Shown here one piece after another: positions 16,564 through 55,061 of a DNA stretch of 64,000 nucleotides. The DNA is taken from positions 640,001 through 704,000 of the forward strand of contig CAWIXE010000001.1 of assembly GCA_963840035.1 (NCBI GenBank), in the 5' to 3' direction. Under the pieces are notes generated by a model. The model did no database searches. It was given only the letters and a program-made list of their open reading frames with translations, and was not told the DNA's origin. Every line of letters begins with the position of its first letter. Within the stretch, counting starts at the first letter, position 1. Made by a program: the position numbers and the translations under genes. The DNA comes from a candidate division FCPU426 bacterium (GTDB taxonomy: Bacteria; Oederibacteriota; PGYV01; Palsa-1178).

Positions 16564-16602
16564 TAATTAATTTTAAATTTGAAATTTTAAATTTGAAATT
16601 GA

Positions 16603-52872: not shown

Positions 52873-53063
52873 ATTGGCCTCCTTAAAAACCGTTTTAATT
52901 ATTTTACATTGTCCGGGCGGGAAAGCAAGAGAATATGGGAGGAGGAGAGGGAGAGACAGGAGATAGGAGACAAGAGACAAGAGACAGGAGGCAGTAGTAA
53001 GACAAATAACAACGTATTACTCCAGTCTCTTGTCTCCTATCTCCTGTCTCACGCAAATTTTTC

Positions 53064-53112
53064 TTGACTTTATAGTATACAAGATGTATACTTTACACAA
53101 ATAAAGTATACA
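53064..53112 (+). promoter_or_regulatory. Promoter with overlapping GTATAC-based inverted repeats (operator candidate)
   Basis: TTGACT-17-TATACT; AGTATACA-AGA-TGTATACT and TGTATACTTTA-N6-TAAAGTATACA. Confidence 0.6.
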
Positions 53113-53131: not shown

Positions 53132-53278
53132 ATGAAACTAAACAGCAATGAAAAAGAGGTTATAAGGGAAAGACGGGCTTACAAGGCCCGCAGGCTGCGG
53201 GCTTTCCGCAAGTTAAGGCGCTTAGTGCAGGTCAATGTGAAGTTCGGGGATATTTTTTGGGAATTGAGGGCCTGCTGA
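53132..53278 (+). CDS. 48-aa Arg-rich small protein (not in ORF track)
   Basis: AAAGGAGG RBS; MKLNSNEKEVIRERRAYKARRLRAFRKLRRLVQVNVKFGDIFWELRAC. Confidence 0.55.
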   Translation: MKLNSNEKEVIRERRAYKARRLRAFRKLRRLVQVNVKFGDIFWELRAC

Positions 53279-53327
53279 AAACCGGAATCAGGGGCTTTAT
53301 TAGTAAAAAAAAATATGGAGGGGTCTT

Positions 53328-53594
53328 ATGAGTGAACAGGAAGCAGTTTTTTCAAAGGCAGTAAGTTCGGGAAAGAAAAAGTACTATATGGACGTGAAGA
53401 AAGCCAAGAACGGGAACCTGTACATGACCATCAAGGAAGTCACGATGGGCGATACAGCCGAGGCAAAGGAGCAGCGCAGGATACTTGTTTTTGATGACGC
53501 CATAAAAGATTTTGCGGCGGCTTTTGACGCGGCAAAACAACACATACCCAACAGGGAAAGGGCAAAACCGCCGATGGAAAAAGCGGCGTTTTAA
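53328..53594 (+). CDS. PUR-family (DUF3276) nucleic-acid-binding protein
   Basis: FSKAV..GKKKYYMDVK....GNLY.TI.E...ILVFDD...F. Confidence 0.8.
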   Translation: MSEQEAVFSKAVSSGKKKYYMDVKKAKNGNLYMTIKEVTMGDTAEAKEQRRILVFDDAIKDFAAAFDAAKQHIPNRERAKPPMEKAAF

Positions 53595-53637: not shown

Positions 53638-53935
53638 ACTTTTGTGGGGCGGGGTATAAGGGTAAGGATTAGGGGTTGAGGAGGAAGAAAAAATACTGTA
53701 GAGAGGCGGCTTGCTGCCTCTTTAGGCGGGCACTTTTGTTTTTGTATTCAAGGTCGCAATTTGCGACCTTGAACGATACCCGTTTGAGGTACCAAATTGG
53801 CACCTCAAAGCGGATTATGTCCTAAAATGTTTTGTGGTCGCAAGCCTGCGTTCCACCGGTCTGCGCCTATATTAGGCATTGAAATATGCAATCGAAAGAA
53901 AATCCTGCAAATCTAAAATTTAGGGGGAGATAGGT

Positions 53936-54472
53936 ATGACGGATATGATACCAATCGAAAATATTGCACAGAAGATTTATGTTATAAGGGGACAAAAGGT
54001 AATGTTAGACAGCAATCTTGCGGTGTTTTATGGAGTGGAAACAAAGGTTTTAAATCAGGCGGTAAAAAGAAATCTGGACCGTTTTCCTGAAAACTTTATG
54101 TTTCAATTGTCCATAGAAGAAAGCAGTTCTTTAAGGTCACAAATTGTGACCTTAAACGACACGACTTTGAGGTCACAAATTGTGACCTCAAAGAGAGGAG
54201 GCAGGACATACCTTCCCTACGCTTTTACCGAGCACGGCGTGGTCATGCTATCCAGCGTCCTTAAAAGCAAAAAAGCCGCGCAGGTCAGCATTGCCGTGGT
54301 AAACGCTTTTATTAAGATGAGGGAATACCTGGCAACGCATAAACAGATACTGGACAAGCTAAAAAAACATGACGAGAACTTTGTAATAATTTTTAATTTT
54401 TTAAAGAAATTGTCTGACAAACCGAAACCGCAGCCAAAACAGATAGGTTTCAGGCAGGTGAAGGATTTGTAG
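53936..54472 (+). CDS. ORF6N (KilA-N-like) domain DNA-binding protein
   Basis: IYVIRGQKVMLDSNLA.FYGVETKVLNQAVKRN.DRFP.NFMFQL...LRSQIVT...LPYAFTEHGV.MLSSVL...IGF. Confidence 0.9.
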   Translation: MTDMIPIENIAQKIYVIRGQKVMLDSNLAVFYGVETKVLNQAVKRNLDRFPENFMFQLSIEESSSLRSQIVTLNDTTLRSQIVTSKRGGRTYLPYAFTEHGVVMLSSVLKSKKAAQVSIAVVNAFIKMREYLATHKQILDKLKKHDENFVIIFNFLKKLSDKPKPQPKQIGFRQVKDL

Positions 54473-55019
54473 TCGCAGGCCTGCGTATCATCGGCCTGCG
54501 CCTATTCAAGTAATAGAAGGACGCAGCCCATCGAAAGTTAACCAACGCGCGCTACAATCATAAAGGACTTCATATAAGGCTAAGGTTTAGGGGTTAAGGA
54601 GGAAGAAAGATATTCCGTAGAGACGCCACCCGCTCATGGCCCTGAGTGAATCGAAGGTCGGGTCCCGTCTCTACGAAATACATGCGGATTGCATTTGGTA
54701 TTAATATTTATAATCACTGTAGAGAGGCGGCTTGCTGCCTCTCAAGGCAGGCACTGCGTCTGAGAGGGGGCAAGCCCCCTCTCTACAATTACATGTTTTT
54801 TAAGGTCACAAAATGAGACCTTAAACGAAGCTTCATTGAAGTCACAATCTGTGACCTCAAACAAGTACCCATTTGAGGTGCCAAATTGACACCTCAAACC
54901 GCAGGCAAAACATATATGCTTCAGGCAGGTAAAAGACGGGGAGTAAAAGCAGTGTTTGATATTCCGTTTTAGAATATCAAGTCTCAAGGCTGCGAGACGG
55001 GTACGGGTCTCGTCTCTAC
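54469..55019. repeat. Mosaic of several REP types interleaved with the 27-bp palindromes
   Basis: GTAGTCGCAGGCC (54469), GTAGAGACG.. (54617-54673), GTAGAGAGG.. pair (54719-54786), ..CGTCTCTAC (~54993-55019). Confidence 0.7.
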
Positions 55020-55061
55020 GATTTCTTACGGTTCAAGGTCACAATTTGTGACCTTGAACGT

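Follow-up and report, generated by a model that had tools for sequence, protein, structure and literature searches.

On balance we favour the view that a 27-bp palindrome read in frame within an ORF6N gene is that gene's own operator, and that the free copies around the gene are spare sites or remains of earlier alleles rather than donor cassettes, a view drawn from comparison of sequences. Its parts differ in strength. Binding of the ORF6N protein to its own palindrome is very probable, and it seems likely that the six free copies represent spare sites and remains of ORF6N alleles with other specificities. What makes an own operator the most likely explanation of the palindrome is the covariation of its arms with the predicted recognition helix, seen both across independent pairs on a phylogenetic tree and in genes where the palindrome is translated in a different frame. 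The relevant features of the window, by which we mean the whole 64-kb stretch of DNA analysed, are as follows.

53075..53091: palindrome GTATACA-N3-TGTATAC over a TTGACT promoter that lies two small genes upstream of ORF6N
53655..53901: genome-wide repeats unrelated to the palindrome, bracketing the upstream pair of free copies
53747..53773: free copy, E type, not matching the resident helix
53783..53809: free copy, R type, not matching
53936..54472, + strand: ORF6N gene, 178 aa (Pfam PF10543, E 2e-34)
54041..54070, + strand: codons of the predicted recognition helix, residues 36-45, with K37, V38 and Q41 covarying with the arms; Q type
54130..54156: in-frame palindrome 1, Q type, matching its own helix, encoding LRSQIVTL
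54166..54192: in-frame palindrome 2, Q type, matching its own helix, encoding LRSQIVTS
54443..54451, + strand: codons of the C-terminal IGF tripeptide, an [ILVM]G[FYL] motif in relatives
54461..54787: further set of these genome-wide repeats, separating the gene from the downstream triplet
54799..54825: free copy, Q type, one arm mismatch
54835..54861: free copy, Q type, slightly decayed
54872..54898: free copy, R type, one arm mismatch, not matching
54896..54936, + strand: copy of the last 14 ORF6N codons, reading KPQAKHICFRQVKD, joined to the triplet out of frame
55032..55058: free copy, perfect Q type, 3 bp from the hemerythrin stop codon

The ORF6N gene and its palindromes

Membership of the gene product in PF10543 is clear (118 bits against a curated cut-off of 27.8). 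All 30 of its 30 Atlas matches are ORF6N clusters, its PHROG matches are anti-repressor families, and there is a weak match to Rha (E 3e-5). By profile it also belongs to the PADLOC candidate PDC-S05, fitting three of its models (E 7e-54 to 4e-38). A search of INPHARED phages gave five matches, all to unannotated records. The structure model (mean pLDDT 76) suggests an N-terminal head with a helix-turn-helix at residues 25-45, the palindrome-coded loop, long C-terminal helices and the IGF tail. The palindrome-coded stretch starts in the modelled helix 60-76 and runs into a segment, 72-88, with pLDDT below 50; its peptide is thus predicted to be a low-confidence loop, separate from the recognition helix. 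Within the last 25 residues the tail motif is found in 222 of 297 relatives, and we take it to resemble the ClpX loop that docks on ClpP. No relative was retrieved by a sequence search of the PDB. For a KilA-N/APSES-like DNA-binding head, fold matches to solved structures were weak, all below Z 8 (Dachshund 5.2, Ski 4.8, pSK1 Par 4.7, Mbp1 4.3), the best Foldseek match having E 0.3. By synteny, an ORF6N gene is present in this neighbourhood in none of 24 relatives, all of them other species.

Eight odd palindromes of 27 bp lie in the window, with spacings of 36, 36, 36 and 37 bp; positions, spacings and translations all agree with the preliminary description. A degenerate-pattern search of the window returned 17 matches, comprising these eight sites on both strands and a non-palindromic one with three mismatches at 16586, where shuffled sequence predicts 0.09. 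The absence of further copies from the 64 kb is thereby borne out. The central one or two bases do vary, as had been remarked, but variation is not concentrated there, since arm positions 4-5 and 10-11 vary too. The core CA-nnn-TG is nearly invariant (177/181 in an earlier gene set).

When a family matrix was run against the whole genome (G000; 3.46 Mb, 98% complete), ten palindromic sites emerged, nine of them in or beside an ORF6N gene. The two sites outside the window are at C1:26048, in frame within a second ORF6N gene, and at C3:327425, which is intergenic. The other seven matrix matches are non-palindromic, with scores like those of shuffled DNA. The site at C3:327425 is an orphan of R type with no ORF6N gene nearby; it lies about 450 bp after a GTATACA-N3-TGTATAC-like box and upstream of a mraZ-like gene.

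The palindrome is a feature of the whole family. ORF6N loci were gathered from genomes, metagenomes and viral contigs, and the 433 profile matches, less 58 incomplete and 75 duplicate ones, left 300 distinct complete genes. In 298 of these, one to four palindromes lie between the FxFQL strand and YAFTE. Among 182 genes the arms are complementary at 10.7 of 11 positions, compared with 5.2 after synonymous recoding of the same peptide, and the excess over recodings reaches p<0.05 in 181 of them; the palindromy thus exceeds codon constraint across many ORF6N genes. Symmetry extends for 13 bp on each side and is gone by 16, while complementarity of the bases next to the centre is no higher than base frequencies predict. 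One palindrome search pattern covered only some arm types and hence undercounts. A hairpin acting in the mRNA was considered and rejected, since the sense strand shows no excess of G-U pairs (26, compared with 40 A-C), and an Rfam match to mir-753 (E 5e-6) was discounted as hairpin likeness.

Related heads share the feature. Palindromes are present in 26 of 27 Bro-N genes, drawn from 31 loci of the phylum, and in G000 the RhuM gene and the two Bro-N genes each contain, in the corresponding position, a palindrome paired at 10 of 11 positions; the background for such palindromes in coding DNA is 38 in 2.74 million positions. The truncated KilA-N gene and the DUF1016 gene of G000 contain no odd palindrome at 9/11 or above. 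By eye, the Bro-N arm types seem to group with helix motifs (Bro-N/RhuM loci L404, L405, L407 and L436-L464).

Palindrome arms and the recognition helix

In 266 single-site genes, residue 41 is tightly linked to the dinucleotide at arm positions 5-4: Q goes with CA (128/129), E with CG (68/68), K with TC (20/20) and, less strictly, R with GC (28/47). K37 likewise pairs with G at arm position 7 (159/160). More generally, arm positions 4-5 track helix residues 41 and 38, and positions 7-8 track residue 37. When all protein columns outside the loop were scanned, the signal lay in K37, V38 and Q41, which are spaced i, i+1, i+4 and so share one face of the helix modelled at 36-45. A site within the gene fits the gene's own helix in 294 of 298 genes, and in 31 of 33 genes flanked by non-matching copies, the code being derived from the same genes on which these matches are counted.

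Shared ancestry was addressed with a FastTree phylogeny of 256 genes, from which helix and loop were left out. On it, independent pairs agreed with the code in 21/23, 14/14, 14/15, 10/10 and 14/22 cases, and none showed the opposite direction. Helix changes on this tree number 88, a count inflated by its shortness, and specificity differs in 8 of 91 gene pairs at 80-85% identity. A covariation of helix and loop at the peptide level was rejected on the strength of 18 genes in which the palindrome is translated in the +1 frame. Their peptides are different (VTNCD, VANCD or VTNWH) but they keep the same DNA code (Q 8/8, E 5/5 and R 5/5, the last five being near kin), and therefore the link is between helix and DNA. 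Of 113 +1-frame proteins, 111 fit, Q being found with T in 107/109 and E with A in 4/4.

Thus, of the ideas put forward at the outset, that of a coding palindrome bound by ORF6N itself gains strong support from the helix covariation. A symmetric site conserved beyond codon needs, and a site specificity tied to recognition residues (covariation, with the frame-shift control), are both what an intragenic auto-operator would display. Acting as a dimer on duplex DNA, ORF6N would place a recognition helix against either arm and so dock on its own gene; the simplest effect would be negative feedback, keeping a potentially harmful, candidate anti-phage protein scarce.

Other elements may also bear on expression. 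The GTATACA-N3-TGTATAC box is found directly upstream of ORF6N in five close relatives, and similar boxes occur in G000 at C1:444966, 107189, 724230, 743553, 938839 and 11032, at C2:907214 and at C3:326980. Boxed TTGAC promoters in this genome precede an apparent lexA-recA operon (by eye), two Bro-N genes and KilA-N and DNA methylase genes. The box is likely to be the SOS box of this lineage, and the position of ORF6N directly behind it in five relatives makes induction by DNA damage plausible. In the window the boxed promoter is followed by a 48-codon basic ORF (53133-53279) and a DUF3276 gene (53328-53594); a second DUF3276-like gene follows the similar box at C1:938839.

Free copies, gene remnants and rival explanations

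Of the six free copies in the window, three fit the resident Q-type helix and three fit other specificities. Outside the centre, four of the six are identical to in-frame sites of other genes: the copy at 53747 to those of three E-helix genes (apart from three central bases), that at 53783 to those of two R-helix genes and that at 55032 to those of eight other genes, the centre again excepted. The 41 nt at 54896-54936, directly after the triplet, are 85% identical to the 3' end of the gene (54425-54465), a feature previously overlooked, and this match marks the triplet as a putative internally deleted gene remnant. The possibility that the flanking copies sit in decayed ORF6N genes, put forward at the outset as a refutation, is thus partly borne out, through the triplet; the upstream pair at 53747 and 53783 has no gene homology beyond a similar linker.

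Remnants consisting of palindrome plus IGF tail recur in three other genomes (G002, G035 and G277). In G007 an intact ORF6N gene stands between two genes whose orthologues in G002 enclose the remnant, which indicates that the gene was lost while its palindromes were retained. In such decayed genes palindromes and last codons persist, and one remnant palindrome is still perfect. Alleles of differing specificity may therefore be pictured as replacing or following one another, the decayed ones leaving palindromes behind. The window would then be a repeat-rich spot that once held successive or tandem ORF6N alleles, with one Q-type allele intact; the upstream E and R pair and the downstream Q, Q and R triplet with its tail would be what remains of others, and the three Q-type free copies could serve as auxiliary sites.

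The surroundings are indeed rich in repeats. Those around the upstream pair have about 8 (53655-53690), 54 (53695-53734) and 49 (53826-53901) matches in G000, and in the spacers around the gene the repeats have about 6 to 106 matches each; those at 54461..54787 are presumably GTAG-type REP-like hairpins. Together with a seven-base-repeat hairpin at 52953-53050, the REP-like repeats of 53655-55021 make this a repeat hot spot.

Replacement of helix and site can be followed at the nuoH-nuoI junction of Flavobacterium, where three loci carry ORF6N, L054 being of Q type and L068 and L081 of E type. Flanks and gene ends in the trio are 86-97% identical, yet L054 has only 75% identity to the other two across a 375 bp gene core that holds helix and site; a divergent core within near-identical ends indicates that both were replaced together. 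Differences among the upstream free copies of the trio affect both arms together, and the first such copy in L081 is identical over all 27 bases to the site inside the L054 gene. In one pair of loci the free copies differ more than the spacers (16/81 against 6/118, p=0.002), the other pairs giving p=0.06 and 1.0. These comparisons suggest that in-gene and free copies exchange sequence over evolution. Solo ORF6N genes with no adjoining mobility gene are also seen inside other conserved operons, namely bioB-bioA, topoisomerase B-A and lepA-signal peptidase (with nuoH-nuoI, loci L054, L068, L081, L069, L316 and L331).

Across the family, 85 free copies lie near 52 of the 300 genes, and none appear in shuffled sequence. 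They are mostly within 300 bp upstream (59 of the 61 upstream ones) or just past the stop codon. The resident helix is fitted by 38 of the 85, against 32% by permutation; 68 of 85 are within two mismatches of another gene's in-frame site, and 13 of 84 of their own gene's. Real gene sequence lies alongside only six of the 85 (15 BLAST matches, nine of them judged trivial on inspection), and the orientation of the centre is balanced in free copies (28:29) but not in in-gene sites (168:77; p=0.008), from which it follows that most free copies are not visibly simple leftovers.

A further question is whether the free copies are themselves functional. An immunity or addiction module with a DNA antidote would comprise a free protein that is harmful and held in check by its own site, and variant sites kept or collected, under selection, because they neutralise other specificity variants; gene loss would be safe only if the palindrome stayed. 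Self-binding is common to this scheme and to the own-operator reading, and we regard the scheme as a whole as unlikely. In its favour, 100 of 100 aligned family members fit the models of PDC-S05, of which a member with a RhuM domain is reported to have cut plating of T7 and T5 about 1000-fold (10.1101/2024.09.26.614923), and BstA is suppressed by cognate DNA at its own locus (PMC8585504). Specificity changes often, by the tree and pair counts given above, and remnants keep their palindromes, as we have seen. When 99 genomes were searched with one pattern irrespective of genes, each yielded between 0 and 7 sites; among 30 loci retrieved, 18 have the gene, two a fragment and ten neither, and several of these orphans adjoin Fic, PIN, nucleotidyltransferase-HEPN or HTH genes. 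At one of them, L493, palindromes at 351-377 and 1499-1525 bracket a nucleotidyltransferase-HEPN pair without any ORF6N gene, one of the two being just upstream of the pair's TTGACA promoter.

Other observations tell against such a module. No catalytic domain is seen in the structure model, and 248 of the 300 genes have no free copy in the available flank, which is often cut by a contig end. Free copies that do not match the resident helix are no better kept than those that do (17/47 perfect against 20/38). Many of the genes sit in housekeeping operons, not in defence islands. The cognate element of BstA consists of direct repeats instead of a palindrome, and in trans it was effective only at high copy number (PMC8585504). 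A related comparison within genes counts against the own-operator reading instead, since matching copies there were not better preserved than non-matching ones (30/47 perfect against 14/25, p=0.61).

The preliminary description had offered, as one of two alternatives, silent donor cassettes, whereby gene conversion from flanking copies, or inversion of the palindrome, would vary the peptide within a population. We now find this very doubtful. Units do enter genes, as is evident from the 19 of 32 multi-copy genes that hold non-matching units in frame and from in-gene spacings that are all multiples of three (40/40, against 9/22 in free arrays). The identity of the L081 upstream copy to the L054 in-gene site, the excess of change in free copies in one of three nuoH-nuoI pairs, and a three-unit array common to L003 and L083, which differ in helix, might also be cited for it. 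Conversion of the site alone, however, would break the match to the helix that nearly all genes keep, those flanked by non-matching copies included, and the peptide that it would recode is the predicted loop, which is separate from the recognition helix. In the one switch that is well resolved, about 375 bp of gene core were exchanged, not 27 bp. Inversion, proposed from the QIV and QFV variants, would alter only the centre, equivalent to a substitution of one base that is found with every helix type. A recombinase (of the serine type) is encoded by one of 88 genes neighbouring ORF6N and a reverse transcriptase by none; reading by eye revealed neither among the ORFs of the window at 48-62 kb. 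Two sequencing runs gave short low-depth contigs, none spanning a palindrome pair. Diversification of the locus survives from the earlier idea in a weaker form, in which both arms of free orthologous copies change in concert and one such copy is identical to the site inside another allele; switching from donors is not supported.

The palindrome might instead act as a hairpin or cruciform extruded from the DNA, or as a small selfish repeat or recombination site that moves solo ORF6N genes, the protein recognising or mobilising the structure; this too is a poor candidate. Each copy can fold into a hairpin with a stem of 11-13 bp and a loop of three bases (z -6 to -9), the genes are solo insertions in varied neighbourhoods, conserved operons included, and copies lie at gene ends and at both ends of the L493 pair; but the palindromes are not dispersed in many copies through unrelated genes and spacers as Rickettsia palindromic elements (RPE) or REP elements are (ten sites in G000, few in any of the 99 genomes), occur in coding DNA at one homologous position only, reach the gathering score of no Rfam family and covary base-specifically with one helix face, as fits duplex readout, and neither a nuclease nor a recombinase domain was found in the protein. 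The symmetry at arm positions 10-13 (82-100%, against 40-66% expected), where no residue covaries, does indicate that hairpin, cruciform or arm-to-arm repair also contributes alongside an own operator.

Significance and comparison with known systems

Should the palindrome be what we propose, the gene would itself reveal the predicted target of each of at least 8000 ORF6N proteins, and the same rule would reach Bro-N (26 of the 27 genes examined) and one RhuM gene. The binding target of phage-type 'antirepressor' heads, an old question, would become testable with one oligonucleotide per protein, and nature would have supplied a recognition code of three residues in which several protein-site pairs are orthogonal. 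The window is a good test case, having three specificity types and a remnant around one intact gene. A more far-reaching idea, which we consider improbable, is that ORF6N, Bro-N and RhuM heads form a widespread, self-addressed defence or addiction class that spells out its own neutralising sites, the variant arrays being a kept immunity record. The three-residue code would then switch specificity, and loss of the site, for instance to a phage that breaks down the host's DNA, would release the protein, whose IGF tail might then engage ClpP; if free arrays were functional, they would be an immunity memory made of DNA only.

A full-text literature search, covering few subscription papers, returned no description of the ORF6N self-palindrome. 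Roi of phage HK022, of the Rha/ANT family (Clerget and Boccard 1996), has a related phage-type DNA-binding head and reportedly binds its own gene. However, roi has no long in-frame palindrome (best 8/11), a point against the own-operator reading, and its product gives no alignment to the ORF6N profile (probability 0.15). Shufflons, programmed inversions and gene-conversion cassettes likewise have variant units beside an expressed gene, to judge from the accessible portion of one account (PMC9881135), whereas the neighbourhood of ORF6N provides no linked invertase or reverse transcriptase and the 27-bp units lack the specificity-determining residues. RPE are also palindromic DNA read in frame in protein genes and found between genes, but those described in the available text (PMC2229807) are of 105-146 bp, lie in 19 different genes and are neutral or slightly harmful. 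The ORF6N element is 27 bp long, occupies a single fixed position in one superfamily and is linked to the helix of its host protein.

Closer in biology is BstA, whose KilA-N-like domain may correspond to the ORF6N head, and which likewise has a cognate element (aba) at its own locus and variant protein-element pairs (PMC8585504). As described there, aba is of 63 bp, with terminal direct repeats, and overlaps the gene start; the palindrome of ORF6N, at 27 bp, lies in mid-gene. BstA has in addition a second domain and proven abortive infection, and direct binding to aba is not shown in those sections either (PMC8585504). The text (PMC8585504) contains 'palindrom' and 'ORF6N' 0 times each. As for PDC-S05, whose models the window protein fits, the available part of the source (10.1101/2024.01.29.577857) mentions no DNA site, and the member tested elsewhere (10.1101/2024.09.26.614923) is there said to carry a RhuM domain, not ORF6N.

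For an own operator of ORF6N, then, intragenic sites provide the comparison. Intragenic or auxiliary operators are well known in lac O2 within lacZ, in gal OI and in parS inside parB/spo0J. Each is likewise a palindromic binding site in coding sequence with further copies near a promoter, and parS, as is proposed for the ORF6N palindrome, lies within the gene of its own binder. The ORF6N site differs from all of these in being near-universal in its family, in coding, through one frame or another, for a loop of its presumed binder, in following a residue-base code that often switches, and in being accompanied by sites of other specificities.
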